DNA from: Amoebophrya sp. A120
Taxonomy: Eukaryota > Protista > Dinoflagellata
Direction of reading: 5' to 3'
Assembly (NCBI GenBank): GCA_905178155.1
Contig: CAJINV010000011.1
Span: forward strand, 1,949,939-2,013,938
Length of the DNA: 64,000 nt
Made by a program: the position numbers and the translations under genes. How positions within the stretch are numbered: position 1 is the stretch's first letter; every line of letters starts with the position of its first letter. Shown here one piece after another: positions 21,202 to 63,753 of this stretch. A model generated the notes under the pieces. The model was not told the DNA's origin, made no database searches, and saw nothing but the letters and a program-made list of their open reading frames with translations.

Positions 21202-24200
21202 TTATCCGTTTCGGAATCTCAGGTCCGACTCTGCAGCTACCTTCGTGGAAGTTGTAGGCAGTAGTTGCGAATTCCTCTTCTGGTTCAGCATCTGCAGTGC
21301 CCGCGACACTTTGGACCGTCGCTATCAAATGCAAAAATGTCTGCGTCTGGGGGATTGCGAGATTTGTCATGCTAGTCTGGCATGACTCTGAACTCTGCAT
21401 TGCGTGGCCGCGAAGCGGTCCTCTTGGCTGTCATGCAAAGACGCAGTTTCTCATGCGGATTACGCAACTCAGACCCACGGAAAACCTTCTCATGCTTGGC
21501 AGCGCATTATAGTGCGCTCACTATTCCCTGCCTTGCATCACAAGTTTCCAGACCCACACATATTTGCATTGGATAGTCGCCCCCGGTAGACAAACTTTTC
21601 CTCTTTCCGCTTTTTCGCGAACAACTTCGGCCCGGTGTAGTAGGGCAGCGGCTTGTAGAGCGTATCCGAGTAGCCGGGATGGCCGGCGACGCAGACGAGG
21701 TTGACGTAGTACCGTTTCCCGCCGTGTAGACTGTGCGGGTCGTCCGGGATATTGTAGCCGAGGTGGGTACTGCTGCCGTTGTTGGAAATGGAGCGGAGCT
21801 CGGGCGTGCCACTGGTCTCGTTCTGCAGGATCACATTGGGCACGTCGATTTCCGGATTCAAGAACGTCTCGTTTTCGTAAAACACCATCCACCCGTAGTG
21901 TAACGCGTCGAACCAGAATTCGGTCCAGTTTCGGGGGTTGTTCCCCCGGCCGGGGATCTGGAACACCGGAAGGCTCCCATTGCGGCTGTCGTAGAACACC
22001 ATGGGATGGGCCTGGTCGTAGGCCAGTATCAAAATGAAAAATGCCCCCTCCGCATATCAAAACGAAAACTTGTGATGCTGATTTGTGGTCGTGATGCTGA
22101 TTTGTGGTCACATATCATCTTTGTCATGCATTTAGCGCCATAGGAGCCATGTGACGCATTCCAGAGCAAGTCTGTCAATCATGCGCTTTCGACTACTGCA
22201 AGCCTGTTTGTCATGCGCAATTGCTAGCCTTCTGCATACCCAAACGGGCTCAGAAAATGCCGCCAAGCACTTTCTGCAAGACAGATCTGATTTGTGTACG
22301 CGAATCCAGCATCAGAAATTTCGTTGCGATATGGGGAGAGGGGACTTTTCCTCTCAATAGCCAGGTGCAGATCCCCGTAAATGCCGTTTCGCGGGTACAT
22401 CCGCTGCCGAAAATACCACGCGGGTTCCTATAAATTGCAAACTTATCGTACTAGTAGTAATTGCATTACAAATTAGCTCAGCATTACAAGTTGAATTTGT
22501 AATGCTGGTTTACATTGAGAAGGAGATTTGTCATGCGTAATTGCGATTAGTACGAGTACGATACTAACTTTTGCACGGGATAGCTCCATAGCGCCAACGT
22601 TTTGCGGGCAGCAGATCCGGTTGGCGGTCAGCCAGTCTACTTTCCACCGGAGCTTCACCGTTTCGTTGATGCAGATCTGAATCACGTAGGGGGTGGTTGT
22701 GGTGGTTGTTGTGGTGGTGGTGGTGGACATCTTGCGGCACAAGATGTAGTTCGCCTTGGGCTTGCCCCCGCCAATAAATTTGTCGGTGTACAGCACGCAC
22801 TTGTTTCCGTTGGTTTCCAGGGCGACGCAACTGGGGTAAATCCAGCAGTATGCATTGCAAATATGTCTGGGTCTGCAAAGTTGGAACCTGTAATGCTGGT
22901 TTTGCATTCCTGCGGAACCTGTGTTGCACGACCAACAAAAGTCGCAGCCTCTCCCGTCGTACAAAAACGCAGTTTCTCATGCGGGGCACGTATGAGAAAG
23001 CGTTCTGCAAACTTGTCATGCTTTCCCGCATAGGGAAGTGTTTTCATCATGCACGTTTTAGCATCACAAATTTCCAGACCCAGACATATTTGCATTTGAT
23101 AAGCACATAGCGCCACACATTTCGATGTCGTCCACGTTTTTCGGCTGGACCACCAGGTGCTCGTGCGGCGTGTTGTACCGGGTGGGCGGGTTGGCGTAGA
23201 TGTGCAATCCGGTACTGTCTATCAAATGCAAATATGTCTGGGTCTGGAAGATTGCAACTGGACTCTAAAAAAATTTGTATTGCATGACCAGCAAGAGGGG
23301 TACAGTTTGTGCCACACGGACAGGGGGGCATTTCTCATGCGGAAGGTGCATCAGGAAGCCCTCTAAAAGTCTGCGATGCTCGGTCATGCATCACAGGCAT
23401 CATGGGTCATGGGAAATATGCATGACAAGTCTCGCATTCTCCCAGACCCAGACATTTTTGCATTTGATACTGTCCGCGCCGGGGCGGGGTGTTGGGCGGT
23501 ACCCCGTGGGGCAATCGCTTGGGTCCGGACCTGGTGGGGGTGCAGGTGAGAGAACTATAGTACTTCAGTTTCAGTATTTGCTGGTCCTTTCTCGTGCAAA
23601 TAATTGAAATTCGATAGTAATATCAGGAGGCATGGTTATATACGATCACAATTATCAAGATCCAGTGTAGATAAGCACTTTCTTAAGTACTTACTATATA
23701 CCCTTCGGCATGTAGAGGGCGATGCTGTCGTTCGCACCCACCGGCCCGTCCGGCGCTCCGCGCGCGTGGAAGGCATTGCAGGAGGAATCCCCGGCCCAGT
23801 CGTCCGTCTATGCATTGCAAAGATGGCTGGGTCTGGATGGATGCAAGGTTTGTCATGCTTGTCTGGCATGACTGAAGAATTTGTGATGCGTGTCCAAGAA
23901 CAGATCCTTTTGCTTATCATGCAAAACGCAGTTTCTCATGCGGAATTCGCAGCACTAAACAGCGCAAATATTTCTCATGCGTGGCTGTGCATTACAGAGA
24001 ATTCACTCCTCGCAACTCAGCATTGCGAGTTTCCAGACCCAGACATATTTGCATTTGATACCGCCGTCGCATATTCGATGTTGTTCGTGCACGAGCAGTA
24101 GTCTCCGAACCCGGAGAACGGATTGCTGTGATTGTTTTTTACCCCGAACCAGAAGAACGGTTCCAGCTGGTTGGTGCCCGCCAAGGAGAGGCCGAAGCTG

Positions 24201-27200
24201 GAAACAAGGAACTCCTTTCTCTTCGTAGGATCCGACAAATCCGCGTCTAAAATGTTGTTTCCGTTATACACCAGTTCGTCGCCCAGCGGGTTCCCGGGAG
24301 CCGGGTGGTTTTCGTACACTCCGGGGGTTTGCCCGTGGCAGTACTTGTGACAGGCGTGAAGCTCGTCGTTTTCCATCTGCAGTTTCCCGGCGCCCGAGGG
24401 ATCGTCTTTGGCGGAGCAGGTGGTGCCGTACCCCAACCACCGGGAGAAGCGAATGGCCTTGATTTTGTCGTCCAGACTCGTGTCCTTAATCTGCATCCGT
24501 ATGCGTTGAAAACATGTCTGGGTATCAAAGTCCCACGTTTGTCATACGCATTTTGGTTTTGCTTGGCCCATGATGTCTCTGACGTATGCCCTAGCATCAC
24601 AGATTTTTACAGGGCTTCGTTCTTGATGCGCATATATCCCGCATGAGAAATGCCCTCTCCGCGTAGCACGAACTGAAACCCTCTTGCTGGTCACAATACA
24701 GATTTTTTACAAAATCCAAAGGCAGCATCACAAGTTCGCATTCTTGTCGAACCAGACATATTTGCCCTTCATAATCCGGTCCTCAAGCCGAAATTGGTCG
24801 TACCAACAGCCCACGTAGATGTACTCTTTGTTGTCAACGGTGACCACCGTTTTGTTGAAGTGGGTAGGGTCGATTGTCGTCGTCGTGGTTGTCGAGGCTT
24901 CGATCTCGCAGTATCAACTGCAAGTACAAATCCGGATCTGGAACAAGACAAATGCCGACTTTTGTAAGTATATGCATCTTTCGGATCACCCGAATGGTGT
25001 CTGATGCACGCAAAAGCTTTACAGTTTTTGCGGACGCCTCTTGGTCTCTCTTGAACGTGATGCCTGCCTCGCGTGAGATGAAACTGCCGCCTTGCGTAGC
25101 TAGCAGGAAGTGGGCACCAACTTTTGGCGCTCACGCAACACAAATCTTTGTGTGTTCCAGAATTTGCATCACAAGTTTTCGTCCTTCCAGACCCAGTCAT
25201 ATAATTTGCCATTCATATACAGCCCACCATCTTGATCTCGTCCCCGGGAAACTCGCAGTAGAACTCTATCGCAAGAAAAAACTGTTTCACTGTGAACTTG
25301 TGATGCATGGAATGGAACACAGAACGATTTGTCTTGCTACACCCCCAACGCATTGGATTTTTAAGCGTGTTTTCCCTTGGGAAGCGCGCATGGCAAGTTT
25401 TCTGTGTCATGTGTAGCAAACTTGTGATGCGGATCTTGCAAAACCATCACAGTGAAACAGTTTTTTCGTTGGATAAACTCCGGGTCATGTGTAACGTGCT
25501 CAGCTGTTACAATCTCAAACGTTACGATAGTAATGGAAATTTGTGCTGCAAAAAGTGCATCATCTACCGAGTGCACTCTCACAGGATTGCGCATGACAAG
25601 TTCCGGAGTCCCAATCCGCGCTAGAATCTGGCAAATTTGTATTGCAGAAAGTGGAACGCTGTGCGAGTCTGTCATGCTCAACATCTTCATGCAACACGAC
25701 ACAACCCAGATTCTATCCATTGCAACGTTTGAGACTGTAATGCTTGTTGAGCAGGTCATATCATGCCCGACCCAATTCGACTCGTTGCAGGTTGCCTTGT
25801 GCAAGTCCGTCCCCACAATGGTGCCGTTCACGGACCCGTTCGGGTGCCCAACGTACACGTGAATCGCGTCGCTCTCGTTCATGGGGGGCAGCTATGCATA
25901 GCAAAAATGTCTGGAAACTTGTGATGCAAGGACGGGAATGGTGAGCCTGAGCACATCACTGTAATTGAAATTATGCGCTGCCAAGTATGACAAGTTTTTC
26001 CGTGGTTCATCTGAAGAGTTGTGTACTCGGCATGTTGAGATGAAACTGCGTTTTTACGTGAGAGGCAAGAGGAGCTCTTTGATGATGCGGCCACGCAGCA
26101 CAGAGTTCAGAGTCATCCCAGGAGACCCAGAAATTTTTTCAATGCATAGCAGCATCGACGTCAGCTCTGCCTCCCAGTCAATCTGCTCGTAGTACGCGAT
26201 CCTGATTTTAGTTTAGTTATGGTTCAATAGTTTTTCGTGTTCCATCCGCTTGTTTTTCTTCTTGATGACATAATTCATGCAGAGATCAGCTACTCGTGGG
26301 AGTTGTAGCGAGAGTATATCGTACGTGTTTTCAACAAAGATCTTCGACGAGTATTCTTTATCGATGATTCTTGAACTTGATTTGTTCACAGCTCTACTGA
26401 TAAGAAGTCTTAAACGACTGGCTCTACTTCTGGTTCTGAATCTGATTAGATGTAAATTATACTTCTCCGAAACATTGGAGTCGTTTGCCGGTGCCTTGCA
26501 GCCCTCCTGGCAACAGTAGGTGGCGCACTTGGCCGCCGGAAATTGTCCTGTGTAAAAACGTCCCCACCCCAGAGTTGTCATGCAAATCTGCATGCTGAAA
26601 ATGTTTCTCACGCGGAGCCCCATGAGAAGCATTTTCTAATGCGGTTTGTAAATCTGTAATGCGCCAATGAGCATGAGCTACTAGATCTCTAATGCTGCTC
26701 AGCTAACTCAAACAGCACTACACTACGCGTCCAAATTTGTCATTCGAAACAGCCAAAGCTTATGGATTTGTCTAGCGGATTTCCCATCTTGACTCTGGTG
26801 TGGGGACATTTTTACTCAGGATAGAAAGGTGCCATTGCTCAAAGCCTGTTCCTGCGTCAGCCCGGCGCAGAAATGGTGCGAGTACTGCGGCACGAAGTAG
26901 GCCTCGATGCCCATGTAATCCCGCACGGCCGGGCAGTCCACGCCGGCGCACGTGGGAAAGCAGGACACCTCGTGCGCCCGGGGGTAGTCCTTGCGAATTT
27001 CGTATCCCACATCGCACTCGTAGTACTCGTCGCACAACTGGCTGTTGTTGTGGGGACAGGGGTCGTACTCGTTCAGAACTCCGTTGCTGCAGGTACAAAT
27101 GTTGTCGGGGTGGTAGGTTGGCTGCGTCGCATTTGTACCAGTCGCGTTCGCGGTCGCGTTAGTTTTGGTCGACGAGGTGGTGTATCCACTGCAAAGAAAT

Positions 27201-30200
27201 CTCGAGCTGGGTCTGGAATGATGCGCATTTCAAATCGAAGAAAAATGTGTTTTATGCAGAAAGAACAAAAGTTGTTTATTTTTGGTCATGGTGAGAGCGG
27301 ATTTTATTTTCTCATGCAGAGTATAAACATTGCGAAGCTCCCGAAGAACCTGTGATGCTGGTCCTCCCTGCATGCCAGACACATCTCTTGGTCGTCATGC
27401 AAAGGCAAAAGAACCTGCATTTGCAAACATCTGCGTTCATCATCATCCAGACCCAGCCATATTGGCAGTGCATATGGTTGTGGTGGAAGTGGTCGTCGTG
27501 GTTGTGGTAATGTCCGTTTCCTGAGGCAGGATTTTCGTGGCATTGTTCGCCTGCTTGAACTCAGTGTACTCCGTCCACATGTTATCCTGAGAAAAAAGTG
27601 TTACAGTCACGCACCCTGATGCAAGACAAGCAAGACAGACTACAACCTCTGTCATGCAGGAAATGCTTGCCACCGTCATTTCATCAATGTTTCCCCTTAT
27701 AGTCTATGCATATACAAGTTTTCTTTGCCATGCAAAGCAAATTTGTCATGGTGAAATTCCAAGAAAAAGAAATGGAAATGCGTAACTGTAACACTTTTTT
27801 CCTAAGATACATGTTCTCGAGCTCTATCTGCGACAGCGCACTGTGCCCGTCGACGGATTCTGGCACGAAGTTGCCGTTGCTGTCCTTCACGTGCCCGTTG
27901 TTGTAGGTAACGTGCCAGTATGGAATGCAAATATGGCTGGGTCGTCTGGAAACCTGTGATGCTAAAAAGCGTGGACGATGGAAACACAAACATAACACTT
28001 CCGAATGCAGCCCAGCATGACCAGTTTCCAGAACGCTTCTCCATAGGCAGTACGCATGAGAAACTGCGTTTTTGCACGACACAAGAGGCTGCGCTTTATT
28101 TTGTTGGTATATGCAATACAGATTCTCCAGGATTGGATTGTATTTGTAACGCTAGCATTACAAGTTTCAACTTTCCAGACCCAGATGACATGTTTGCAAT
28201 GCATAGCCAGTCCGGAACGACGCCCTCCCACGCCTGGTCCTTGGCAACCGTCTCCCACTCGTATTTGGTCAAAGCTTCCAGGTTACAGTCCTTGTCGGAG
28301 TTGGTATCGAATGCAAAAATGTCTGGGTCTGGAAGATTGCGAGATTTGTCATGCTTATCTGGCATGACAAAAAGGTTTGCGATGCGTGTCCAAGAAGAGA
28401 CCCTTCTGCCTGTCATGCAAAAACGCAGTTTGTCATGGGAAAAACGCAACACAACAAAGCGCAGATATTTCTCATGCTTGCCTGTGCATTACAGAGCATT
28501 CACTAGTCCCAACGCAGCATTACAAGTTTCCACACCCAGACATTTTTGCAGTTGATAGTTGGGGCCGGCCAGCCAAATGTTGCTCGTCTCCATGTACAGC
28601 CAGGCGGGGTATCAACTGCAAAAATGTCTGGGTCTGGAAGAGTCGCGGCTTGTCATGCACATTTTGCATGAGCCGTGAGGTCTGTGATGCTAGTCCTAGC
28701 ATCACAGATTTTTTGAGAGCTTCTTGATGCTAATTACGCATGAGAAATGCCCTTTCCTTCGGCGTGCCAAGAACTGACTCCTCTTACGCTACTGCTCAGG
28801 CAAGAACATAGATATTTCTAGAATCCTCGGACAGCATTACAAGTTCCACTCTTGTTCCAGACCCAGACATATTTGCAATCCATACGGGGTCCACGAAGTC
28901 CGTTTGCGCGGCGTTGATGCGGTGCCGCACGTTCATCAGGTGAAACACCAGATCTGCGTCGTCGCACTCTATCAAAAGCAAAAGCACCCCCTCCCGATAT
29001 CAAAACGAAGTTAGTGCTGCTGGATTTGCGTGACAAACCGCCTCTCTAATGGATGCGCCGCATACCTCGGCGCCTGCCTTCTTGCAACACATAAACTGAT
29101 TTTCGACCACAAATCTCGTGCATCACAAATTTTCCTTTTCGGTATGGGGAGGGTGGCGGGGGATTTTTCCTCACAGTACACTCCGTGCCCTGGCACCCCT
29201 TGTCCACGAAGTACTGGCTCCAGTCGCTAGCTTTGATGTAGTACCTGGGATCGCTCGCGGGTCCAGTCGTCGTAAATTCGGTGAGGCGGAGGTAGTTTTT
29301 GCCAATAAGGTCGAAAAGCTGGTCGAAATCCGGTTTGTCGGGCACTTTTGTCGGCAGAAAGACGGTCCGCTGGGGATCGCCGGGCTCGCAATCATCCGTC
29401 GCTCCTTTTCTCTCTTCTTCTTCTTCTTGTTTATTTCGCGACGTCTTCAACCTCTTCGTCGCGTGCGCTTTCTCAAAGCGAGAGGTCGACTCTGACATTC
29501 CCTTGGTCAGCTGGTTGATTTCAAAGCGATAGTTTTCTTCATCACCTCCGCCGTTCTTTACGCCGGGAAGAGTAGTTGTGCTGGAGGGGGGTCGTGCTCC
29601 TGGGGCGTCCTCTTCAAGATGAACCTCTTCTTGCGCCGGCGTTTTTCCCCCTCGTCCCTGCTCTACTTGGTCTTCAAGAGTTGTGTACTCGTCGTCACCT
29701 CCTTCAGAAGATGCGGAGAAATCCGATCCCTGCTGGTCCTGCGCGCTGAGTTCTTGCTCGAAGAGGTCCTCGTCGGAATAGGAGGCCACCGCCGCTTCGA
29801 AGTCCTTGTCTTGATCGTACTGCGCCTGCTCCGCGTCACTGGTCATTTTCCGCTGGAATTCCTTGCGTTGGAGGTTCTGAAACCCATTCGAAAGGCTGTC
29901 GTCCAAGCTCGCAAGTGTCGCACTTTTCGTACTTTTCGTCCGCTGCGACGTCCTCTGGCCCATTTTTGCTGCTTGCCGTCCTTGCTGGCCGGTCTGTAGT
30001 TCCTGCTGCTGTTCGACCCGCATCATCGAAGCGGGGGCTGCTGCGGCAATTCCCCCGCTGGCGAGGGTTTTTGGTAATACTTCGACAGGCGAAGACCCCT
30101 GCTGCTTCATCCCCAGCTCCAACCCGACGGGCGCTTTCTTTACCCCCTTTGTCGTGGTCTCCCCGGGGGCGCTGGCTGGAGGGTGTGGTGCAGCAGGCAG

Positions 30201-33200
30201 CGACCGGTAATCTGAGGTGGTTACCTCTGTTCCTGCAGTCTTTGTAGTTGTCCTCGTCGCGTCCTGCAGAGTACGAATGTGTTTCTGATCTTCGCCTTGC
30301 CAGTCGTCATCCTGGAGGGCGGCCTTGTCGATAGCTGTTCCTGTACTCCTTGTAATTTCGGAGCCTGGTGCAGCTGTTGGCTCTACTTCGTTTTTTCCTA
30401 GTTGCTCCTCCACCGTGTGTAGAAGCTGCTGACCACTTCCAGCGTGAAGAAGACCACCCTCCTCGTCTTCCTCTTCCTCTCCGCCACCGTCTACATAGTC
30501 ATAGTCGGTGTCTTCGTCTTGTTCAAGTGCTGGCGCGTCATTTTGTTGAAAAAACACGTCGTCGTCGTCGTCGTCGTCGTCGGCCTCCGTCCAAGAAGCG
30601 TAGTTTTCGCCCTATCAAATGCAAATATGTGGTCTGGGACGGGATGAAACTTGTGACGCTAAAGTGTGGAAGGATGATGGAAACACGACTTCCGCATGCC
30701 GCCAAGCATGACAACCTTCCGGAACGCTCTCACGCGCATGATCCCGCATGAGATGAAACTGCGGTTTTGTTTGTACAAAAGAGGCTGCGACTTTTGTTGC
30801 TCATGCAATACAGATGGAGATTTATTATGCGAGGCCACCAGCATCACAAGTTTGCACTTTGCAGACCCAGACATATTTGCACTGAATACGGGTCCCACGT
30901 CGTTATCAATCTTGTTTGCCGACCGCAGGAGCTCGGCGAACTTCTTCAGATTACTTAACTCCGCGGTACTCTTGCTTGTTCCTTTCAGTATCCAGGAAAA
31001 AATAAAGTGTGTAAGTGTAACTTTCTTTGGGGAACAGCATCACAAATTTGCTCTACATGACAGAGAAAACCTGTCATGCGTCACTTGTAAGGGAAAACAC
31101 ACATGAAAATAGGACTTCGTGGCTGTCTGGCATGACTGGTGCAACTCTGTTGCATGTTCTGCAACACAAATTTACACTTGCACAGTTTTTTTTGTTGCGA
31201 TATTCAGGACCCGTTCTCTGGTAGTTGTGGTGCTCCTCCTGCTCTCTGTTCCTTGAGAAGTACTCGTCAACGATCCTTCGAATTTTTCTTCCGATCCCGT
31301 TTTCATCATCGCCGACGGTGCTTCAATCTTGTTTGCCGACCGCAGGAGCTCGGCGAACTTCTATCAAATGTAAAAATGTCTGGGTCTGGAAGAGTCATGC
31401 TGTTTTTGCATGACAAAGAAGGTCTGGCATGGAAGCTCTAGCATTACAGGTTTCGAGAAGCTTCCGCAATGCCGAATCCGCATGACAAATCCCACACTTT
31501 GGTGACAGAAAGTGGGCAACTTTTGCTGCTTATGCATGAGAGATTTTTCTGTGTTCTGAAATGCGCATCACAAGTTTGTATTCTTCCAGACCCAGACATT
31601 TTTGCAGTTGATAACTTCTTCAGATTGCTTAACTCCGCGGTACTCTTGCTTGTTCCTTTCAGGACCCGTTCTCCAGTTGTAGTTGTGGTGCTCCTCCTGC
31701 TATCCTGAGAAAAAAGTATTACAGTTATACACTCTGATGGAAGAGAAGCAAGACAGACCACCTCTGTCGTGCAGAAAATACTTGCCAGCCTCATTTCCTT
31801 CGTGTTTTCGCTTATAGTCTGCGCATCACAGGTTTTCTTTGCCATGTCGAGCAACTTTGTGATGCAGAAACTCCAACAAATGTGTACCTGTAACACTTTT
31901 TTCCTGTAATACCTGCTCTCTGTTCCTTGAGAAGTACTCGTCAACGATATCCTGAGTAAAAACGTACCCACACCATAGTTGTCATGCAACTCTGCATGCT
32001 TAAAATGCTTCTCATGCGGAGCCCCATGAGAAGCATTTTCTAATGCGGTTTTGAAATTTGTCATGCTCCAATCAGCATGAGAAACTAGATCTGTAATGCT
32101 GCTAAACTAGCTCAAACAGCACTACACGAGGCGTCCAAATCTGTCATGCCAAACAACCAAAGCTGTGTGATTTGTCTAGCAGGTTTCCCATGTTGACTCT
32201 GGTGTGGGTACGTTTTTACTCAGGATAAACGATCCTTCGAAGTTTTCTTCCGATCCCGTTTTCATCATAGCCGACGGTGCTTCGAATTTTTCTTTATTAC
32301 AATGAAAAGTGCCCCCATCCCTGAACTTGGCAGCATTTGTATTGCTGCAAACCTTTCCAATAGAAAAATCCCCCGTCTTGCATATTATCAACATCACAAA
32401 TATGCCGTGCCGCATGGCGCAAGTTTGTGTTGCGCAAGAGCCCAGCTGCAGCCGGGCCTGTCATGTTGGAAGGCTAAGGGCTGGGCGTCCCCTCGTAAAT
32501 TAATTCGACAAACAGTAGCCTGAGGTCCTGAGGTCCTGAGGTGGGTGACGCGCCCGAGAGCACAGACACCGGCGGAATGGTGACGACCGAAAGGGTCAGG
32601 AGACTCACCTTTTTCGCGAGAAAGAAGACTGCTGAACCCGCGCGCGAAACTTCGGCGGGCCGACGCAAGTGCCGGTCTTGTAATGTAGAGCAATCAAAAA
32701 TCTAACGTCCCTATGTTCGCTGTTGTTAGACGAGGAGACAGTCCGAACCACGGAAAGGAACAACAGCTCCAGGGCGGGCCTGGGCGGAAAATGCATGACA
32801 AACACCGGAAGTCGAAACAGATCATGACAAGGAAAGGCCAGAATGATACTAAAGGTGGCACCAGGGTGGAAAAATAAAAGCTGGCCTTGTTCGTCTCCTT
32901 GGTCTCGTTCCCAAAGCCCAAGTAAATCTAAAGTAATTTTTTAAAAAATAATAAAGCTTTACTCTACGCGCGCTTAAGTTACTTTGTCTAGACCGGTCGA
33001 TCCACTTCTGCCTGTACCGTCTCTATTCCGTTTTCTCTACCACCCTAAGAAGTGGCGAGCTTATGCATAGCATGCTTAGGACATGCAGCCGGGCCTGTCA
33101 TGTAAAAGATACCTTACTCGCCTAGATTCTGCATCAGAAAGACTCGTAGTCCTTTCATGCAAGACAAAAAGTTTTCATTTGGAAACTTTGCATCAGAAAC

Positions 33201-36200
33201 TTTTGCAAATTTTCGGGTGGGGGCATTTTTCATTGCAATATTCTTCCGATCCCGTTTTCATCATCAGCGCCGACTGGCCAGTCTCCGCTAAGCCAACGGC
33301 CCCTGTTTGATGTCGTGTTCTCGGAGGTTTCGTGTTTTTTTCATGTAGGAGCAGTGCCTCGCTCTTGCTGGCTCTTTTCGTGCCGCTTTTCTTGTTCTCC
33401 ATTGAGGGTGGAGCAGGAGCCCTACCACGGTGGTGTCCACGCCCTTTGTGCCAGATGTCATCAACAACCTTAATATCATTGCGGCCTTTATTGCCTTCCT
33501 TGTTTCCCGTCGTAGCTGCCTTGTCGCGAGCAGATGATGATGCTGATGATAATGATGGTGAGTGGACGCGCTGGACCACTCCTACTACTTCGGGGTTATT
33601 TTCATTTTCGTCTACAACCTCCCGTAGTTGTCCATGATCTAGATCTTCGTGCTTTGGATCTTCATGCTTTACTTCCTTTATTTTCTGGTATTTGAGTCTG
33701 TGGTGGTGATGGCGGTGCAGGTTTTTCGCCGAAACGTCTCTGTGCTTTTTCGCGGCCTTTATCAAATGTAAAAATGTCTGGGTCTGGAAACTTGTACTGC
33801 TGCGTTGGGAATAGTGAATGCTCTGTAATGCACAGCCAAGCATGAGCAATATCTGCGCCTCTTTGTGTTGCGTTTTTCGCATGACAAACTGCGGTGTTGC
33901 ATGACAGGCAAAAGGGTCTCTTCTTGGACACGCATCACAAACCTTTTAGTCATGCCAGGCACGCATGACAAGTCTCGCAATCTTCCAGACCCAGACATTT
34001 TTGCATTTGATAGCCTTAACGATCAGATCATTCTCTTTTGCTCGGATCACCCCCTCGGCGGTCGCATCTACCCTCGTTATGCACGGTGCAAATATCATCT
34101 TCCACCCTGGATCATGTCTGGAAAAGCGCAAAAAACTGCTCATGCGTCCTTTCGTGGGTCCTCATACAACAAACATCTGTCTTGCATGATTGCCACAAGT
34201 TGCCCACTTGTGACCAACTTGGTACGGGGTTTTTATTTCTCATGCAGGATAGGAGTCAGTAGTAGTAGTAGTATTACCCAACAAAACGGGGTAAAACGAT
34301 AATTAGATGCGCTATCTATTTATTATCGTTAGTATTGCTGCCGGAACCGCTATCACTGCTTTCAGCTATTTCAGGCTCGTCTTTTTTCTTCTTCTTCCCC
34401 CGCGCAGGCTTATTCTTGCATTTGTCTTGGTGTTTCCGCATTCTCCCAACGTACCAGTTTAGTGCTCTGTTCTGGCTGTGCCACTCTTGTTCGTTGTGCT
34501 CGTATCGCAACTTATAGGTCCTACAGTGCCTGCACCTCAAGTACTGCTCTCCTGCTCTGTTCGTGAACATGTTAGCGGTAGGAACGCAAATCTTCCACGC
34601 CTTGCCTTGGCCTCCATATGTGTATCGGCCTGCTGCGCTACACCAGTAGTGATACTCCGATCTGCACACGCTAGGAGGATTCTGTGACCCTGGTGGCCTC
34701 TTGTCCAGCGAGGAGTTGTAGCCTACTTTTATGAAGTTCCCAGTCCTATGATCCTCCGCATGCCTCTCCATAGCGCCTGCCGACTCCACGAACGTGAGGC
34801 CGCACGGTATGCAGCGAGTTTTCTTGTGTGCGTGCTTTCCGCCACCTTTTTTCAGTTCGCGAATTTCTGGATTCCGCTGAAGTACTTCCATCTTGACTTT
34901 CTGGTCAAGCAGGGCATCCTGCTGGTGGTTTACGTCCAAAATTCGCTGTAGCATGGGGTCATCGGCAACAGGGTAGCAGGCGGGATGCTGTTGCTCCAGG
35001 TGCTCGAGAAGGGCCTCAGGCATGCCATCAGCAGGTTGCTGCTCAGCCAGTTCATCAAAATACTCTCTGCGGTCAACTTCAGACTGCGGGTCAAGTCCCA
35101 AAAAACACATGATGTTACGCGAACACCAAAAGCACTCCTCACCGCGAAAAACTTGCTCTGGGGCGCCGTCTGGAATCTTCATCTGTTGTATCATTTCCTC
35201 TACGGTGTCGCCATCCCATCCCAACTCTTCGCCGTCTTTACGAATTTTTTCCTTCATTTTCCCGAGCGACGACGAGGAAAAATACTTCGCTGCCAGCTCT
35301 TTCTCCACCTCAGCCCTTAGTAGTCGGTCTCCGTCCGCCCAGTCATCTGCTGTATGCCGGATGAAGGCCCATCGAGTCAGACAAAAATAAACCTTTTTGT
35401 TGACATTGTAGCACGACAGCTCGTTTCCTTGAGGTGGGGGTCTCCGCGTGTCCGCCTCCGCCATGGACTCCCACAGCAACTGAAGAGCCTCCGGACCCAA
35501 CTTGCACTCTTTTCGAAGAAACTCCAACGCGTCCCCAAAAAAGTCAGGAATTTTCTTGTCTCGCGCCTCCACCTCCTTCAGGTCCTGCGCAGACCTGTAG
35601 AAGTCACGCAGCCTAAGTCTCGGCACACCCAAGGCGTCTGCTTCCGCTGGTGGGCTGGCTCGCGGATAAAACTTGCCGATCAGGGCTGCTCGTACCAAGT
35701 CATTTTTTGGCTTCCGCATGGTGTGCGCAATTGTCTTCAGTTGCAGGTATCTGACTTGCGCACGGATGGGAGGAATCTTCATTCTGCGCCGCAGGCTGCG
35801 CGAACTGGCCTGGTTTTGGTCGTGTACCCATAACGGTATCCCCACGAACATCTTCATCATTTTTGTTTCAGCCGATTGTAACAAATTGAAGTGGTCCTCC
35901 CCGACAAAGCGAACCTGCAGGCCGTAGATCATGATGGAGCGGACCATAATGATCAATAGTTCCCCCTTGCGCTGCTGTGTCAATCCGGTTAGCCCCGACA
36001 CTGTCGACTTCAGTGCATGAAATGCCGACCAAGCCTTTGAAATTTTTATACGGATATCTGCGTCGTCATTTGTGTTCACGCCAAGGTTCCGGGTTTGAAT
36101 TTTTGTGATGTCATCCATGATTCTCTTGCTCAGGTTCTCACTCATCCCGCACTGGTTCAGGACTTTGCTCATCAGCTCTGTCAGTTCGTTGTTAAGTGGC

Positions 36201-39200
36201 TCAAGCTTGTTCTTGATCCGCTCGCTATTGTCCTCCACCTGCTTCAACACCTCAGCCGCCTGCCCCTGCGAAAATAGGGTGGTATCATCTGCGAAGAGAA
36301 GGCGGCCCAACAAGAATTTTATTAGCGTGTCGTCTTGGTTTTCGCCTAGCAGGACTCTCCTTCCCGCTTTCACCAGTTCGTGTATTTTTTCCTTCCGCTC
36401 CCAGTGCCACGCCTTGTCCATTGCGCTCAAACTCACACCCCAGGCTTCTTCAGGTAACTTCCGCCGCTCCAACTGAAAAATCCGCATTACAGCCGAATAG
36501 CAAACCAAGAACAAAAGGGGGGAGGATACGCAGCCTTCTTTTGTTCCGTTTTTCACGGTAAGCGGTATGCTATCTTCAAACATATGCACCGCGGATCGGT
36601 GTGAGCACCTTATCACCTGCCAACACCTTGAGTTGCCCAGCCCGAGTTCACGAAAAACGCCTTCCATCAGTCTCTCGTCGAGGCTTGGGAACGCTTTGCG
36701 TAAGTCAATGAGCGTCGCCACTAATCGGTAAAAGGTTGGAGACTTCGAAAAATGTCGGAAGTCTTCGCGCATCCGATTAAACACCAAAAGGCTGTCAAGC
36801 GTTCCTACTCCCGCTCGGAAGCCAAATGGTTCGGCGTTGAAGTATCCGACGGCCTCGAGCGCCTTGTAGAGGCGGTCCGAATAAATTTTCGTAACCAGTT
36901 TCATGAGTAACGGACTGATTACCAAAAATCTATAGTTATCGGCCGAGCTTCTTGCACCCTTGCCCTTGTACAACGGAATGTCGCGACACAAATGAAATTT
37001 TTCTCCCAGTTCCGAGAGAGGCCTCGTGTCCATCTCGGTGTTGATGATTCCCGCGATTACTTCCACCGAATCCTCACTGAAATGCTTCAGGATTTGTGGG
37101 GTGAGGCCGTGCACGTCTTTGGCCCTGCCTCCTTGCGCCATGTGACGAATCGCCTGCGCAAGCTCTTCTGCCTCCACCGGTGCGTCCAGCTCCGCTACTG
37201 TTTCCGGCAAAAGCTTCTTTACTACTTCTTTCAGCCTGCTGTCGATCGGAAGCGCTTGATCCTTGTGGAGAGGCGAATTCCCTACCATGTTGTACTGGGC
37301 GCGGGACTGGGCAGGGGTTACGTAGCACGCGCGGTCGCTCTTTCTGACCTTTTCTTCTCTAAAGAGCTGCCACATGTGCGCCTTTGCCTTGGCCGATTCC
37401 AGCAGCTGTTCAGACGTTGCGCGCGGAATTGTTTTTCTTGTTTTCCCGGTCAACATAGGCGCAATCTCAATTAAATAGTCCTGAAGCTGCTCCAAGTTAC
37501 TTATTTTCCCCGCACTGTGGCGTCGCTGCAGGCACTTGTTGATGTGGTCCCTTGTTTCGCCCGAAATCTCATTTAGAATGCCCTTCGTTAGCGCCTTCCT
37601 CGCAACTCCTTCCTCACGCAGCCTCTGGAAGGATTTCACGTCGCAGGCAATCTCGATGGCGGAATGGTCAAAAGATACTTGCGCATATGGGGCTGTGCCG
37701 TCACGGTTGCGGCCCTGTAGTGAAAATCTCCGATACGAGCGAACTTTTTCCGCCTGTTTCCCCAGTGTCAGCCAGTGGCCAATTTCCGTTTTCCCCCGGT
37801 AGGTGTGGTAGTTGTCCGCCTTGAACCACGACCCGGCCAGCACCAAACTCATGGACATCAGGTTTGCTGCGACCTGGTGCCCTCGCTGCGAGGTAACCTT
37901 GCTCCCAAATCCACCACTGATGCAGGAGCTGGCATACTCGTCGGAGCCTGCACCAATGTGAGCATTGAGATCGCCCCCCATCAAGAACATTTTCCACTTC
38001 TCTTTTTTCATTTTTTTGAAATCCTTTACCGTGTTCGAAAGGCTGCGGTCAAATGCTTGCACTGCATGGGGCTTCGATCCCGATGTGGGCGCGTAGTATG
38101 CAGCAAGGACGATCTCCGGCAAAGCAACTGCTACCACCCGCTCTCTGGCACGTACCAAATTTTCCGGAATGGGGCCCGATCCAAGTTGTTTTCTCAGTGT
38201 CAGCCCTGTTATGAGAATCCCGGCGCCGTTTATCCACAACAAGTCGAAGTCTTTTTTCCGAAGCCACCGGTACTTCTCGCTGCTGCTACCATCATTCGCG
38301 TGTCCGCTTACAACGAGATCTGCATCATCCTCCGGAATGTCATCGTCGATCATCTCCTCCACTCGCTCATCCTGGTGCAAATCAGCGTCACCATAGTCAG
38401 GCACATCACCCCCATGGGCATCATCAACCCCGTCACCAGCATCGTCGGCATCGAGCGCGCCTCGCTTGTTGAGTTCAGCAACAACAACTTCCCCCCGGGT
38501 TCTGGAAGAATGAAGAGACTTTTTACGGTACTCAAATTCACTTAACATGATTGCATCCCAACGCCGAATGCTTGCCACCCGCAGCACATGCCTAAGCCTG
38601 TCACTGTCTCTGCCTGCGCCACACATGTTCACGCATGAGAGCTTCACTCTTCCATGCCCTACAAGCGGTGGTGGGTCGTGCACACTTTCGGCGAGTTCAG
38701 GAAACGGCTCCCAGTCGACTTCGGATTTTTGCTGTTCTTCCCACTCCTTGAGAAGTCTTTTTCTGTCCTGTTCGATCTTCTTCATTGCGTTTTTGTGTCC
38801 TTGAATTTGCGGGTCGCCATTCCCTCCCTCATCACCACCAGCTGCTACTGTTACACGCGGAGGCCGCTTTGCAGAAGCTTCGTTCCCAGCTGCTTCCTTT
38901 AAAAGCCGCATACTGCTCTGCTCCTGTCCAACAACAGTGTCATCATCTTGCCCTGATGTTTCAGGTTCAGATGGCGTGGCTGTCGTACTTCCCAATGAGC
39001 GGTCATCCTGCTCGGAGCCGTCGTCTACACAAGCGCGGCGGTGATGCCAGCTGGTCTGGCCGCTACACGACGGAGCTACAGGATCAATATGGTGAACTCC
39101 CGAGCCAATCACCTCCCGATTACCATCGTGGAAGGCCTGCTGATAGTCTCCTAACCACTGCGGAACGCGACTACTCGATCCCGCCGGTGCCGGATGTTCA

Positions 39201-42200
39201 CGATCGTTTCCTTGCCGGTCGCCTGGTTCTGTCGAGCTCGTCCGCGAACAGCCTACCAGGCGCGAACTCAAAATGTGCCCCGGTTTGCCGTTGGGTAAAT
39301 CATCCGCTTTGCCGGTTTTCGGTCGTGTTTCTTCACTGTCCCGACCGCCCCAGGTCGGTGTAAGTAGAGCACTTTCGTGATTTTCTTCTGATTGGCAAGA
39401 CCAATACTTATCGCAAGTTGAAGTCGCTGAGCCAATGCGCGGGTGAGTCGAAACCGCTCCTCCAGGTGCAACAAGAGCTCTTGACGCGGAATTCGATATT
39501 GCTAGAACCGCCTCCGGCACTACTGAACTCTCACTGTCTCCCCATGGCGATGCGACATACTGTTCACCAGTTTGCACCGGTCGCGAGCTCGACCACTCCG
39601 TAGATCCACTTCCATTCGCAGTAACAGTGAAATCGGGCTGAGTATCTGGACAACAAACCCTTTCTGCGCAAACATCACAATGACTGGACTCAGGTCCTGT
39701 TTCACTTTCGTGGCGCATCCCAGAAAAACCGTCCACACCTTCCTCAGCTCCTGAGCCGAGTGGCAGCAATTCACTGTCGTCCTGATGCCGGTCCGACCGC
39801 TTCCTTTTCCCCCTTCTCCGATTAATCTCAGTAGCGGCTACCACGCTGGTGTCACGAACCTCTTTCTCGTTCTCAGGCGTAATTACTGCGTCGTACCCGC
39901 ACCGCGCATATCTAGGGAGAAGCCAGTAAAATGGTAAACTTGGGCCCCCGCTCGTCCCGGAGGTGTCGGCTATGTTTTCGACTGGGCAACGAAGGTCATG
40001 AACAAGCTGCCCAAAGGAGGTAGAAGACGTCTTCTTGCAGTTCGAATCTCGCATGTCGATGCTGCTTCTCCTTTTCTGGTTATGCTCTGGCGAGGATTCT
40101 GCACATGCGGTTTCTCGTCCTGTAGCGTGAAGATTACTAGACTTTCCACCAAATTCCCGCAATAATCGCGAACCCCGGCTTACAAACCAACAAAAAATTC
40201 TTCTGATGCTACTGGAAGCCATCGCTTTTCTGCACCATCGAGGCATGAATTTATGATGAAGCAGAGAGGGAGATGAGGACTTCGTCGAAGCCGCTGCATG
40301 CTGGCGCTTCGGCGTAATATGGAGATGAGGAAGCCAGTGCGTTCGCAAAAACAGTTCTTCCTCCGAGGTTACTATCTTCATCCGAGCGTCGTCAGTTTCC
40401 GTAGGCTGCGGTAATAGGTTGATGTATTTGGTGGCACAGGTCCAGCGGCCCGCACGGCGGCTCGTCCTAATTTTCCTCCACTTCCGATGCCAGTGCGATT
40501 CTCCTTTTGCTGTGTGAAATACTTTAGCCTTCCTGACGAAATCCCGCATGTTCAAAATCTCGATGTCGTGTAGAATCTTGCGTGCAGGAATTCGAAATTT
40601 TTTGGTGTCGCGGCGGGGCTGCACAGCTGCAGCGGATGCATCGACTGAGGAGAAACTCAGAGCCTCTTCTTCAACGTCGACCATTTTTCTAGTCCCTGCA
40701 AGCGCTCCACTTAGTGCCTGCACAAAAGCCATGAGCAGTGCCACTACTGCTGCTATCGCAATTTCAGCTCCACCACTCCCGGCCTTGACCGACGACTGAC
40801 GATTGCGATTAATGCGACAAGATGGCCCCTCAACGAGGTTGTTGCGCAACGACCGCACTGCACGACTCAACTTTCCCCAACGACAGAATTCATAACTATA
40901 GTTTGTAATCGGTGGACAATGCATATGCGTGGGGGAATCAAGCACAAAAACAAAATGAACATTGTTGCGGGATGCGCTCCGTCCTAGGTCAGGTCTGCAT
41001 TCAAGTCCACCACTGCTACTATGATCAGGAGCACTGCTGGGATGGTTACTAGTGCTATTGCTACTTTCTATGTGCGTGCCGCGTGTGACGTTGGACACAG
41101 CACTTTCATCAGCATGGTGCAAGTGGTAATGTGGATTCTTCTCAGAACTGTTGCTGCGAGCAAGTGCCCGCTTCAGCTCATCTTCTTTTTGTTTTTTCGC
41201 ATTGTGCTCAAACATTTTCGCACCAAATGCCGTTTTCATTTCTACCAAAAACGCAGAGGATTTTTTACCAATCATTGACCATGCTGTTTGTAGTTCAATT
41301 CTGCCTCCATCACCATCATCATACAACCCTTCGCCATCTTCCTCCTCTACTTTCTTGGTGCCGTCACTGCTTGCTTCGACAATTGCATTAGTTCTCATCT
41401 CCGGCTCGTTTCGTACCCGTTGTTCATGTACTGCATTATTTTCAATCCGATAGATCTCCGCGATAGGCCGGACTGCTGGCAAAGACGTGCTGACCACGAT
41501 TGTATTTCTTCGCGATATCGCATGTCCAACTTGTAGTAGTTTGCTTCTCGAGTAATAGTTTTGATTCTGCTGAATTAAGGTAGGCGACGTGCTGTTTACT
41601 GCTTTACAGATTTTTTTCTCCTTTGTTCCTGTGCATCCTGAATTACCACCATCGACTTCCGATTGAGTTACTGCTGCGAGCACGCTTCGCTCTCGGACGG
41701 CTTCGGCTCGGACGCGGCGGAGGGACCTGTTTTTGTTCTTGTTATTGTGCGAGAATTTCCCATGCAAATGTCCACGCGATACTGAAGAATCTGTCATGCA
41801 TGTTGGGGCAAAAAGAGTATTACCATTCGTGATTGCCATTTTGTCGGCTTTCCACTGCGGGGCGCCTTGCTTCGGATCATCGTCAACACAAACCCCACCT
41901 AGTGCACGCTTTAACTCCTCATCTTCATTCACATCACTGATGCGCGGCAGAGTAGCCCTCTGATTCTCCATCTCCTTCAACTCCTCCTCCGTGGCGAGCC
42001 CCTGCTTGAGTGCGAGGCGGTGCAAAATCAAGTTGCTGGGCTTCATCGCGTCGTTGGTCGACTGTTGTAAAAAAGAGCGATCTTCTTTGCGTTTTCCGTG
42101 GAAGTACTTGCAAGCGCTGAACAGCTGAGAGCTTTGCCGCTTTTCGGATTCAGCAACAGCATCACCAACCATCTTCTTCACCTTCTCCTCTGTCAACCCG

Positions 42201-45200
42201 GCATCATTGGTCATCTGGATCGGTTCTTTTTCTTCAGGCTCTTCAGGCATACGGCAGGACGGATGTTGCTTCACGTACCCAATGTCCCCGATGTTCATCA
42301 GAGTTTGAGCGCGAACGCGGAGCGTCGGCTTCCCCATGCGAGTGTGGCCCCACACAACTTGCCCAGCGTAGAAGGCCCGCGGTGTCAGTCCAACCGCATC
42401 ATCGATTTCACGCGTAAGGCAGGTAGCCACATCCGACGCCTTTTCGTAGCAGCTCAGGTGCGTAGAAAACAAGTCCTCCGGCGGGCCCACTGTGAAGCGC
42501 GTAATTCCCAGTCCTCCCTGCTCCGTGTCTTCTTTGGTAGCAACGCACTTCAGGATGTGACACGACGGCGGCAAGACCACAATGCCCTCGTCATTGAATC
42601 CAATGACATCTTCAACAACCCGACAGGCCGTGATGGGGATGGGGGTGTCGCGCACAACTAATCCCTTGCCCCGGCCTTTCGCTTCTTCCTTGTTCCAGTC
42701 GAATTTGAAGGCCTTGGCTTTTACCAGCGCGTTGACGATTTCGTATAGTTCCGGTAGATTTCCCTTGCCCCTGATCAAATAATCATCAAAAGTCTGCACC
42801 GCGTTGACAACAGCGATGTGCTGGACGTCTCCCATCTCGTAGGCATCACTGATCTTTTTCGCGCATTTTTTGTCGGCAAGCTCGTGGTACTCGTTGATCG
42901 ACTCCGGCGTGTCCAACCCGCCAAGCAACGCAAACCCCTTGTCCGCAGCGATTAAGAAGTTGTTGATGATTCCCACTGCGAACGCGATCCCAACATAGTC
43001 AAAGTGGATGGAAGTGACGGCCTTGATGATGTTCTGGATTGCTTCCCCATCAAAAACGTCAATCGCAATCTTGTCCATTTCCGCATCATGGATTTTGAAT
43101 TTTTCGAACATGTCCATCTGGTCGCTTAGGCGGTACGGATGCTTTTTGGTGTCGGCCAGCACTGCCCCCGAGCAGTGCTCCTCATCCTCCTTCTCAATTA
43201 CTTCTTTACTTGCTTCCACCGTTTCATCAAGCGTTTCAAATTCCATTTTTTCCTGCTTCTTCTTGTACGCCGCCACAGCAGCTGCTTCGCTCTCCTTGCA
43301 AAACGCGGATGTGATTTCTTGCAGCGAGTCACCGGAGGAAGAGGAAGAAGAACTCCCAGGCGCAGGGGTTACTTCCATAACCTTGTCATCGATGAGCCCG
43401 GCGAACATTTGGTGGAGATTGGCGCACACAACGTCATGACTGTGCTTCGCAGCAATGTGGTGGTTGAAAAGTTCTTGCACCTTCTGTTTTACTTCTGCTT
43501 TTTTCGTTTTTTCAACCTTGATGATCATGCTCTTGTTCTTGTCACCCGCGACCCACATGACGACAAAGTTACTGGCCTTGTCCGCCTTGTCCTTGTTGTC
43601 TTCAGGCGGGAAACGTCCGCTCCGCCTTGGTTTCTAAAAAGTCGCTAATTTTTCCGGCGGTTCGTTTTTTTCCGGTTCCCGATTCCGGGGAAGACGAGTG
43701 AACAAAGAAGACTCCCCAAAGAAGAAGAACAAAAGAGGCCCAAACGGAGAAGGACCAACCTGGTGGCCGGTAGAAACGAACCAAGACCCTTCCAGTGTTT
43801 GGAAGTGGATCTTCCCCACTCTGGTTGCCCAAAGACCCAAAATACACAATACCCCACCAGCGAAATCCCTCCTGACCACCGTCGCACCCCAGACATGTGG
43901 GAACACGATGAACATTTCCCCGGGTGCCCCGATCCACGTCTTCTAATTTGCCCTTCTAAAAGTTCCTTCTAATTTCATCTTCTAAAACCTTCTTCTAATT
44001 TCCCCCTTCTAAAGCCTTCTTCTAATTTCCCCTTCTAAAGCCTACTTCTAATTTCCCCTTCTAAAATGTCTTCTAATTTATCTTCTAAAAGTGCCTTCTA
44101 AAATGGCTTCTAAAATCCCTTCTAATTTGTTTTCTAATTCTTCTTCTAATTTTCTTCTAATTCTCGTCGAAATCCGGAGGAAATCCGGCTCCCCGGAGCA
44201 TGTCCGGGGAGCTTCTAATTTCCTTGTAGTGCAAAATCCCATTGGATTTTGCATTTTTGGATTTCGACGGCAGAATTAGAAGATGATTAGAAGTCCGGAC
44301 AGGACCATCAAAATGCAGGTTTAGCCGACATCTTGATGCTCTCCTTCCGAGTTCTGAAACCCCGTCACCCTCTCATCCTCCATTTCCCGAACAACATGAT
44401 GGTTGAAATTTTTCAACCATCACATTCTTCGGACCCAAAACATACACAAATATCCGAAAAAGGCGAAGAACATATCCCCATGAAAGACACAGACATCCAC
44501 AACACCACGGGGATAGGACACACCCACGCCAACCACACGGTGGAAAAACCACCCGGATATGTGTCGGCTCATCCTAGAACAAATCGACATCCCCTGCACA
44601 TCCGAGATAACCCAAAAACCTGCCGCAATTTTTAAATTTTAATTTTGCCGAACCACAAGACCATGGGTCGAGGCCCGCCGCGAATACAATCGGCGGCCGG
44701 CCCCAAGAGAAAGTGGCGGCGAACAAAATACACCCAAAATGGCGAGGGCGAGGCGTCGCCGGACGTAACGCTTGCAAACACCTACCGGGCGGGATTGCAG
44801 GCCAACGCCGGGGAATTTTTGAAGCGCCGGAAATTTTAGCGATTTTTTAACCAAGAAAACGGAGCGGGGTGCTCCCGCCTGATCTGTTGCCGGCGGGGCG
44901 GCCGGCTCACAGAGATCCCCACCCGCTTCGCCGCGTCGTCGTCCGACATACAGCGACAGGGNCCCGGATATGTGTCGGCTCATCCTAGAACAAATCGACA
45001 TCCCCTGCACATCCGAGATAACCCAAAAACCTGCCGCAATTTTTAAATTTTAATTTTGCCGAACCACAAGACCATGGGTCGAGGCCCGCCGCGAATACAA
45101 TCGGCGGCCGGCCCCAAGAGAAAGTGGCGGCGAACAAAATACACCCAAAATGGCGAGGGCGAGGCGTCGCCGGACGTAACGCTTGCAAACACCTACCGGG

Positions 45201-61735: not shown

Positions 61736-63753
61736 TCAAATCTTTTCTAGGAATGAATTCGTGTTTGAAGACTGCTCTGACGCCGCGCCGTCCCCCGTAG
61801 CGGCTTTGGCTTCCGCGTCGGCGGCCCCGTCCACCTCCTCGTTTTCATCCTGCATGAACGCGGTCTGGCCCTCGTTGTCAACACCCTGCTCCGCGCCATC
61901 ATCATCTTGATCATATGCAGTGCAAATATGTCTGTAATGCTGCGCTTGGTGGAATTGGATTCTAAAAAAAATTTGTATTGCATGAACAGCAAGAAAAATC
62001 CAGTTTGTGCTAAGTACGCGGAGAGGGCAAAATTTCTCATGCGGTAGAGGCATCACGATGTCCTCTAAAAAACTGTGATGCTAGGGCATGCATTGCAGGC
62101 TTCATGGGTCATCTTCCAAAATATGCATGTCAAACTTGACAATCTTCCAGACCCAGACATTTTTGCAGTTGATAGATCACCGGCCTGCTCCATTTCCCGT
62201 TCCTCCTCCGGTAAATTGGTGCCGTCACCCGGGTTATCAAGTGCAAATATCCCTGGAGGTCTGGAAACTTGTAATGCTGGATTGGGAATAGTGAATTTCT
62301 TGTAATGCACAGACACGCATGCGAAATCATCTCTGCGCTGCCTAGTGTTGCGTTTACCGCATGACGATGACTACACACTGCGTTTTTGCATGACAGGCAA
62401 AAGGGTCTTTTCTTGGACACGCATCACAAGCTTTGCAGTCTGTGACTGTGTCTGTCATGCCAGACAAGCATGACAAACCTTGCATTTTTCAAGACCCAGA
62501 CGTATTTGCAATCCATACGGGTACTTGCCCGCGATGCACACGAGGTTGACGCAGTACCGGTTTCCCTGCTCGTCCGGCATGTTGTGGCCCAGGTGGATCG
62601 ACGGGATCTCGATCACTTTTCCCACTTTCGTGTGGCTGGTTGGCATATGCATTGCAAGAGTATCGGTATCGCACTCGTAGTAATCGTATACAAATCCTAT
62701 TCTCAAATTGATGTCATGCGCTTTTATACTAGTAAGTACGATAGTACTTATGCAGTCCATATGGCACCGTGATGATCTCAGAGGGCACCGGATTCAGATT
62801 CGGCGACACCTGGCCCCGGTAGGAGGGGTGCCGCAGCGGGTTGTGCTCCGAGACCGACTTCGGAATTGGCTCACCGCCCCCCGTGGCGCCGCCGAAAGAC
62901 TCCGGGTTGGTTTCGTTTGCGGTCACATTCTATGCATTGCAACTATGTCTGGTTCTGGAAGGATGCACGGTTTGTCATGCATATTTTGCATGGCCCATGA
63001 CGCCTGTAATGCATGCTCTAGCATCACAGATTTTTAGAGGGCTTCCTGATGCACATTCCGCATGAGAAATGCCCTGCCCGCGTAGCACAAACCAGACTCC
63101 TCTTGCTAGTCATGCAATACAGATTTTTTTGGAATCCGAAGACAGCATCACAAGTCACAACCTTCCAGAAGACATATTTGCAAGGCATACGTTCATCACG
63201 CGGTCGAAGTTCACCTCGTCGTCGCGGAACGAAGGCCACCCGTGGTACTTGGACTCCAGGTAGAACTCCAGGTAGGACCGCGGGTTCGGCCCGAATCCCG
63301 GGACCCGGAACAGCTCCTCGTTCGGGTCAGAAGAGGAGTAGAAGCTCATGTAGGCGGTGCCGTTGGGGAGCTCCTCGGGGAGCGCGTACCCGGTGCCGGT
63401 GAAGTTGAGTCCCTGGTAGAACGAGGCCTGCGGCTCGGCCAGGCGCTGGGGCACGGTGCAGCACACGTTCACGGCCGTCGCCTCGTCGACCAACCAGCGG
63501 AGCTGCGGCCGCTCGGGCAGGCAGGACACGGCCCCAAAGGGAACCTCCTCCGGTTTGGGGTACTCCTTCTGCTTCTTCCGTTCTTGCAGCGTCGTTTTCT
63601 TCTGCATCACCGAGGACTGCGGATCATTCCTGGCATCCTCGACCGCTCCGTCGACGGGGCGCTTCTTGTCGTTCAACAAATCTTTGGCGGTCCTCGTCTC
63701 CTGGTTACTTCGCTCGTCCTCTTCGCTGTTCCTTGTCGTTGACGTAACTGCAT
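61736..63753 (-). CDS. msrB: MsrB/SelR-like protein paralog (5' part outside the window)
   Basis: LRWLVDEATAVNVCC...ESKYHGWPSFRDDEV...HLGHNMPDEQGNRYCVNLVCIAG; four complete introners removed in frame; acidic tail. Confidence 0.72.
61914..62174. mobile_element. Introner family B
   Basis: Family B TIR; TSD GATCA. Confidence 0.9.
62235..62517. mobile_element. Introner family B
   Basis: Family B TIR; TSD CGGGT. Confidence 0.9.
62646..62761. mobile_element. Introner family F (116 bp, smallest seen)
   Basis: Family F TIR; TSD TGGCA. Confidence 0.86.
62931..63189. mobile_element. Introner family B
   Basis: Family B TIR; TSD CATTC/CGTTC. Confidence 0.88.

Follow-up and report, generated by a model that had tools for sequence, protein, structure and literature searches.

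Filled and empty introner sites in an intragenic coding repeat of Amoebophrya sp. A120

The introners of Amoebophrya sp. A120 are described by Farhat et al. 2021 (PMC7789003) as non-canonical introns of about 240 nt, whose inverted repeats start with TAT, continue with seven freer bases and an A run, and fold into a hairpin. The direct repeats at their borders are given there as 3–5 nt in length, variable in position and "reminiscent of" target-site duplications (TSDs), and the elements are likened to MITEs. In that account, gain and loss cannot be told apart and no cognate transposase is found in A120; A25 and A120 are too distant from each other to supply empty sites. Gozashti et al. 2025 (PMC12130899) class the A120 introner families mostly as TIR DNA. 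There, family 38 is annotated as 'Ginger; 5-bp TSD, TA/TA termini', with a length of ~810 nt and integrase-like frames, a TSD of 5 was called manually for family 19, and the automated TSD calls are 2 to 6 or missing among 41 of the 58 A120 rows. The Ginger2/Tdd elements (Bao et al. 2010, PMC2836005) have TGTNR termini, with 5-bp TSDs for TDD-4 and TDD-5, and 4-bp TSDs in AT-rich targets for other Ginger2 elements. MITE-like introners are also described in Micromonas, Aureococcus, Symbiodinium and Polarella, where splicing usually restores the message length, and in Aureococcus an ortholog without the element served as the control (PMC9860276, PMC11282704, bioRxiv 10.1101/2020.10.14.339549).

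We analysed a window of 64,000 nt from A120 (the window being the whole stretch of DNA under study), in which a gene on the minus strand contains a tandem coding repeat interrupted by inverted-repeat elements. These elements are A120 introners that work like MITE-type introners, an assignment that does not extend to Ginger. They share with the introners of PMC7789003, as described there, the organism, the TAT-type inverted repeat, the border direct repeat, the hairpin, the removal from the message and the repetition at unrelated sites; they differ from that description in having a direct repeat of exactly 5 nt that lies immediately against the element and comes with an empty-site control. The fixed-length TSD, present as a single copy at the empty site, is the mark of a MITE-like element and was found here. 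The four short elements of the repeat (211–280 nt) have no coding capacity, in contrast to the integrase-like homology and ~810 nt of family 38 as listed in PMC12130899. The Ginger2/Tdd elements, as characterised in PMC2836005, resemble ours in their terminal inverted repeats and in a TSD range of 4–5 bp that includes 5 bp, but the five elements of the repeat have TAT rather than TGTNR termini and no target preference is evident at the elements here. The MITE-like introners of the other algae are likewise inverted-repeat elements with TSDs, yet in the published accounts the GT/GC/GA-AG splice sites that they use are supplied by the element or the TSD, whereas 19 of the 22 elements of our host gene offer neither GT-AG nor GC-AG. 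The nonconventional introns of euglenids (PMC11282704), as outlined there, are similar in their non-canonical junctions, end-pairing hairpin and TSD-like repeats, but belong to another lineage and have their own junction consensus, pyrimidine|purine.

The host gene (21205..46574, minus strand) encodes P0001, a public Amoebophrya sp. A120 protein of 1965 aa, and the repeat sits in its low-complexity amino-terminal part. The gene holds 22 TAT...ATA-type elements between 21323 and 34012. Excision of 14 elements, each together with 5 nt, gave a 1207-codon frame from 34161 to 26215, which equals P0001 over 1097 aligned residues with one exception. Copy 1 of the repeat (31325..32283, minus strand) measures 201 nt once its three elements are taken out, and its translation, EAPSAMMKTGSEENF...LRSANKI, is identical to P0001. 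Copy 2 (30908..31324, minus strand) measures 198 nt without its single element. Alignment of the two copies after element removal revealed 4 substitutions and one 3-nt gap, equivalent to one codon, with a total divergence of 2%. A third, partial copy (32284..33274, minus strand) comprises ~45 nt encoding SALMMKTGSEEKF, is broken by a 946-nt element, and equals copy 2 at both sites that separate copies 1 and 2 in that stretch. The open frame continues through copy 1, copy 2 and the partial copy, and removing each element with 5 nt recovered the peptide of an earlier note on this DNA twice, in frame and on the minus strand.

Analysis of the repeat confirmed the four insertions and four empty sister sites of the earlier note at the places where it had put them; a fifth insertion, of 946 nt and with an equivalent empty-site control, had been overlooked. 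Of the four short TAT...ATA elements, three interrupt copy 1 and the fourth interrupts copy 2; they are given here without strand and named by their flanking pentamers. In copy 1, the AACGA element (31948-32227, 280 nt) is pristine, with a terminal inverted repeat matching at 22/22 positions and a fold z of -11.8; the CCTGC element (31701-31911, 211 nt) matches at 16/22 (fold z -4.6), and the ACTTC element (31362-31613, 252 nt) at 20/22 (fold z -6.75). The TTCAG element of copy 2 (30989-31202, 214 nt) is the most decayed, with 11/22 and a fold z of -2.2. The TTCTT element (32295-33240, 946 nt), which interrupts the partial copy, has an inverted repeat of 20/22 and is absent from P0001. Each pentamer occurs once at the corresponding empty site, in plus-strand coordinates: AACGA at 31269-31273, CCTGC at 31238-31242, ACTTC at 30940-30944 and TTCTT at 31286-31290, all in copy 2, and TTCAG at 31658-31662 in copy 1; the TTCTT site is also empty in copy 1, near 32245, as read by eye. 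Thus all five elements of the repeat have a perfect flanking 5-base repeat and all five have an empty sister site. The five elements start with TAT on both strands, and the ends of all of them show TAT, seven freer bases and an A run on at least one side. Folding against shuffled sequences indicated an end-to-end hairpin in all four short elements, weak in the TTCAG element, where 4 of 200 shuffles were as good. No transposase was found in the five elements, the longest stop-free stretches of which are 53–111 aa. Just downstream of the repeat lies a further element (30613..30888, no strand given) whose 5-base repeat has decayed, with 3 of 5 bases differing. Within the 946-nt element, ~236 nt (32522-32757) have no counterpart in X4 record 14, a related contig, which suggests a nested insertion. 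One end of this segment bears short tandem 8-mers, and a search for repeats of at least 6 bases flanking it found none.

The window is dense in short TAT...ATA elements flanked by a 5-base direct repeat, and the length of this repeat was assessed on a set of 52 TAT...ATA pairs (100–400 nt) chosen only because their terminal inverted repeats agree at 15 or more of 22 positions. Of these 52 pairs, 27 are flanked by a perfect 5-base repeat; perfect repeats of 4, 6, 7 or 8 bases were observed in none, those of 2 bases in 5/52 and those of 3 bases in 1/52. This length-specific test supersedes an earlier single-base-shuffle null (3–11 pairs against 34 observed). The reading of the pentamers as true TSDs is thereby borne out: they are single at the empty sites and specifically 5 bases long (27/52 against 0/52 for 4, 6, 7 and 8). 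In a second set of 52 window elements, assembled by hand for strong ends or a near-perfect repeat and therefore different from the first set, 37 carry a perfect 5-base repeat. Given this proportion, perfect repeats at all four sites have P=0.26, so the four perfect repeats are no evidence of date. Across the hand-listed elements the two TSD copies mismatch at 19 of 260 sites (7%). Among the 15 imperfect elements, these mismatches fall at sense positions 1–5 as 8, 6, 2, 3 and 0 (chi-square P=0.03), in a test whose events are not independent and whose strands were assigned by open-frame length. The skew may reflect the splice register.

Comparison of the elements with one another revealed three families where the earlier note had counted four. 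The CCTGC and TTCAG elements belong to one ~210-nt family in opposite orientation, with 72% identity over 200 aligned bases (score 103, against -9 for the best of 30 shuffles), and they group with elements of 209 and 227 nt at 25267 and 27583. The remaining pairs among the four short elements align with scores of at most 22. Relatives of the four short elements elsewhere in the window are 72–83% alike, and closer pieces occur in contigs; the 946-nt element has one related contig. The nearest contig relatives differ from the CCTGC element at 11 positions in ~115 nt and from the TTCAG element at 8–10 in ~105 nt (7–10%). In the raw RNA run X9, 73–89 reads bear the 32-nt end of the ACTTC element (31362-31393) from another genomic site. 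The raw RNA runs X9 and X10 gave 98 and 3 reads, partly on element sequence and 0 on the exons of the gene, and these runs are uninformative on presence or absence across strains because of that distribution.

The removal of the elements from the message was followed in X3 and X4, two contig sets (not reads) from one sample, taken as RNA by guess, over the region 29000-34400; in all, 4 of 11 listed sequencing runs, none of them recorded as RNA, were compared with the region. An X4 contig joins 30983 to 31203 and omits 219 nt, that is 214+5 at the TTCAG element, and both X3 and X4 omit 258 nt (253+5) at a neighbouring element. Copy-specific 31-mers were used for the repeat since the copies collapse in the contigs. 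The genome-absent 31-mers of records 3 and 10 match only the spliced junctions of CCTGC (copy 1), ACTTC (copy 1) and TTCAG (copy 2), with 7/7, 16/16 and 14/14 of the possible 31-mers, respectively. The CCTGC 31-mers are in X3 record 3 and the ACTTC ones in X4 record 10, to which the copy-1 letter was given by equal depth. Exact removal of element plus 5 bases is therefore present in the RNA-like contigs for 3 of the 4 short elements and for 3 of 5 overall. Removal of the AACGA and TTCTT elements was not seen in X3 or X4 and appears only in the public gene model P0001; there all 5 are removed exactly as introns, in a model that derives from the same genome project and is not independent.

Six registers are possible for the exact removal of each element, and among the five only the CCTGC element offers GT-AG in one of them; the AACGA, ACTTC and TTCAG elements have no GT-AG register. 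Canonical U2 ends, GT(GC)-AG in the exact-removal register, are lacking in 4 of the 5 elements, and in the host gene as a whole a GT-AG or GC-AG register exists in 3 of 22. P0001 retains the upstream target copy in 3 of 3 informative imperfect repeats, the other 2 of the gene's 5 being silent; at 30613-30888 this retention leaves only the last three options for the register. The guide for removal is probably the direct repeat in combination with the long end-to-end hairpin, not GT-AG. The CCTGC element is stop-free and in frame, so that its retention adds 72 codons and a retained copy could be translated.

The TAT...ATA ends, the 5-base repeats, the empty sister sites, the exact restoration of the frame and the three families are direct observations, and the order of events is read from them. 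The earlier note had placed the insertions after the duplication of the coding unit. This is the best reading and in our judgement a likely one, and it falls short of proof: an empty site is expected under gain and also under mRNA-templated loss or duplication, because the spliced message is identical to it. In the preferred reading, non-autonomous inverted-repeat DNA transposons, the A120 introners, would have inserted one by one after the unit had doubled. A tandem duplication at the DNA level would carry any resident element into both copies; because such a duplication copies everything in the unit, elements present in one copy only would be later, and each of the four one-copy elements would then represent a subsequent insertion or an exact loss. 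The 5-base staggered cut would be made by a transposase, probably integrase-like, that is encoded elsewhere. The cell would excise the element together with one 5-base copy from the message, as the RNA-like contigs indicate for three of the four short elements and as we infer for the fourth, and the upstream copy would stay behind. The longest element-free stretch of the repeat is 159 nt, with no intron-free 201 nt; because 159 nt is less than one unit, one insertion or more must have followed the duplication, barring later loss. The ages of the elements can be compared roughly with that of the duplication. Sites at which all aligned contigs differ from the window number at least 5 in the TTCAG element, at least 2 in the ACTTC element and at least 2 in the AACGA element (40 of 85 difference rows), and these private changes, as lower bounds, amount to ~1–2%, which does not exceed half of the synonymous divergence, this half being 2–3%. 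The counts are compatible, as a rough fit, with element ages no greater than that of the duplication. The CCTGC and TTCAG elements differ by 7–10% from their nearest relatives seen, against 2% total divergence between the copies, which counts against late insertion. The dating depends on 2–3 synonymous changes, and through gene conversion between the tandem copies the duplication could seem more recent than it is.

The identity of spliced message and empty site also admits a history in which a reverse-transcribed spliced message was the template for copy 2, either at its origin or in a later overwriting, so that the three copy-1 elements would be older and only the TTCAG element (with TTCTT) need be later. 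The stretch from 31361 to 30908 contains 235 coding nt with the TTCAG element only, which leaves room for a whole unit, and the host gene contains a frame of 3105 codons in which a reverse-transcriptase domain is recognised (RVT_1, E 5e-08); cDNA recycling occurs in dinoflagellates. Such an origin nevertheless requires the in-frame tandem placement of a cDNA piece and still needs a later insertion, and the 5-base repeats stay target duplications under it too. It further makes TTCAG the youngest element, yet decay is greatest in TTCAG and least in AACGA. We regard this history as unlikely. Slightly more doubtful still is a history with real gains in a duplication older than it appears, short gene conversion having kept the exon pieces alike, from which no speed could be deduced. 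The tandem copies are adjacent, their 2% total divergence stands beside a visibly decayed TTCAG element, and the relatives of the elements in the window are mostly just 70–83% alike, all of which would suit conversion. Conversion should, however, occasionally copy or erase an element, and 0 of 5 sites are shared between the copies; moreover, the synonymous interval, reaching 0.19, already covers the observed decay. A tandem created by the assembly, through joining of two alleles or strains with different insertions, is very improbable. The tandem is known from the assembly and from RNA-like contigs, not from DNA reads, but X3 record 3, 231 nt in length (201 + 30, with the same 30-nt ends), represents a collapsed 201-nt tandem unit that closes as a circle and spans the junction of copies 1 and 2 (31221-31352) with 0 other letters. 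Spliced 31-mers specific to each copy are present in the contigs, and the frame is continuous through both copies and the third, partial one.

With insertion after duplication as the favoured order, the speed of gain was estimated from the synonymous divergence between copies 1 and 2, which amounts to 2–3 changes in ~47 sites, or 0.04–0.06 (interval 0.005–0.19). The two TSD copies of elements in the window mismatch to a similar extent (7%), and the duplication is therefore about as old as a typical element. The earlier suggestion of rapid intron gain is only loosely supported, with no unusual burst apparent. The repeat carries an element load similar to that of its neighbours and modestly above the gene average: 4 insertions were seen against 1.5 expected from that average (P=0.06), or 5 against 1.7 expected when the fifth element is counted (P=0.03, in a region chosen after the fact). 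The pattern fits the published view of strain-specific, ongoing spread.

Analysis of the surroundings of the repeat revealed a first annotated intron of the host gene (34078-46200) of 12.1 kb, with TAT... and ...ACA ends and a perfect CTCGT repeat; its excision with 5 nt gives the P0001 sequence, and it resembles a small introner that nested insertions have enlarged. The reverse-transcriptase frame occupies 34316-43633 (minus strand) within this intron as a single stop-free, LINE-like frame on the same strand as the host gene, with tandem arrays based on 12–13 nt upstream (43939-44162). An element of 271 nt at 25490-25760 has the ends TAT...ACA and a CATGA repeat; it contains no stop, and P0001 includes its translation as exon sequence. 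Contigs of 4475–4504 nt fall short of the remaining annotated coding sequence (4569 nt), a difference compatible with removal of 25490-25760, and the element is probably a missed intron. Three elements (26544-26823, 25490-25760 and 34078-46200) have one TGT/ACA end in place of TAT/ATA, a terminus characteristic of Ginger and LTR elements. Weak matches to the carboxy-terminal part of P0001 at 63164-63541 (33%) and 62515-62601 (53%) suggest a putative distant paralog near the window end. An unbroken 679-codon frame without a Pfam match occupies 52731-54770 (minus strand), in a region without recognised elements.

P0001 itself matched no Pfam family at E up to 1, and searches with parts of the protein found no ortholog. 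A 477-aa exon query, run against longer proteins, returned only P0001; a query with residues 925-1930 returned only the gene's own product among proteins of near length and 0 matches among shorter ones; and phmmer with a 146-aa exon against 1.84 billion representatives gave 3 matches. Apart from the gene's own product these were P0002 and P0003, which were rejected because both are repetitive and match only weakly.

The elements, their non-canonical splicing and, for one family, a 5-bp TSD with TA termini are already published; we found no published empty-site control for Amoebophrya in the literature, the supplements of which might contain one. The locus adds five filled/empty pairs in one gene, from which the element ends and the length of the TSD can be fixed and an approximate relative date obtained. 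Being one locus, and with a broad interval on its date, it illustrates a known kind of element neatly rather than holding a surprise; it is weak for dating and useful as a natural control. Tentatively, and with more doubt than confidence, the repeat may be taken as both internal clock and control, in which one intron per 100 coding bases was gained within ~5% synonymous divergence, from three families and at targets without splice-site content; exact excision would then read the end hairpin and the 5-base repeat and keep the upstream copy, and the cut register would show in the uneven decay of the repeat. TSD mismatches offer a cheap readout of the splice register for introns without GT-AG, which bears on splicing in Amoebophrya, and a genome-wide version of the comparison, on internal repeats and recent paralogs, would yield a rate of intron gain.
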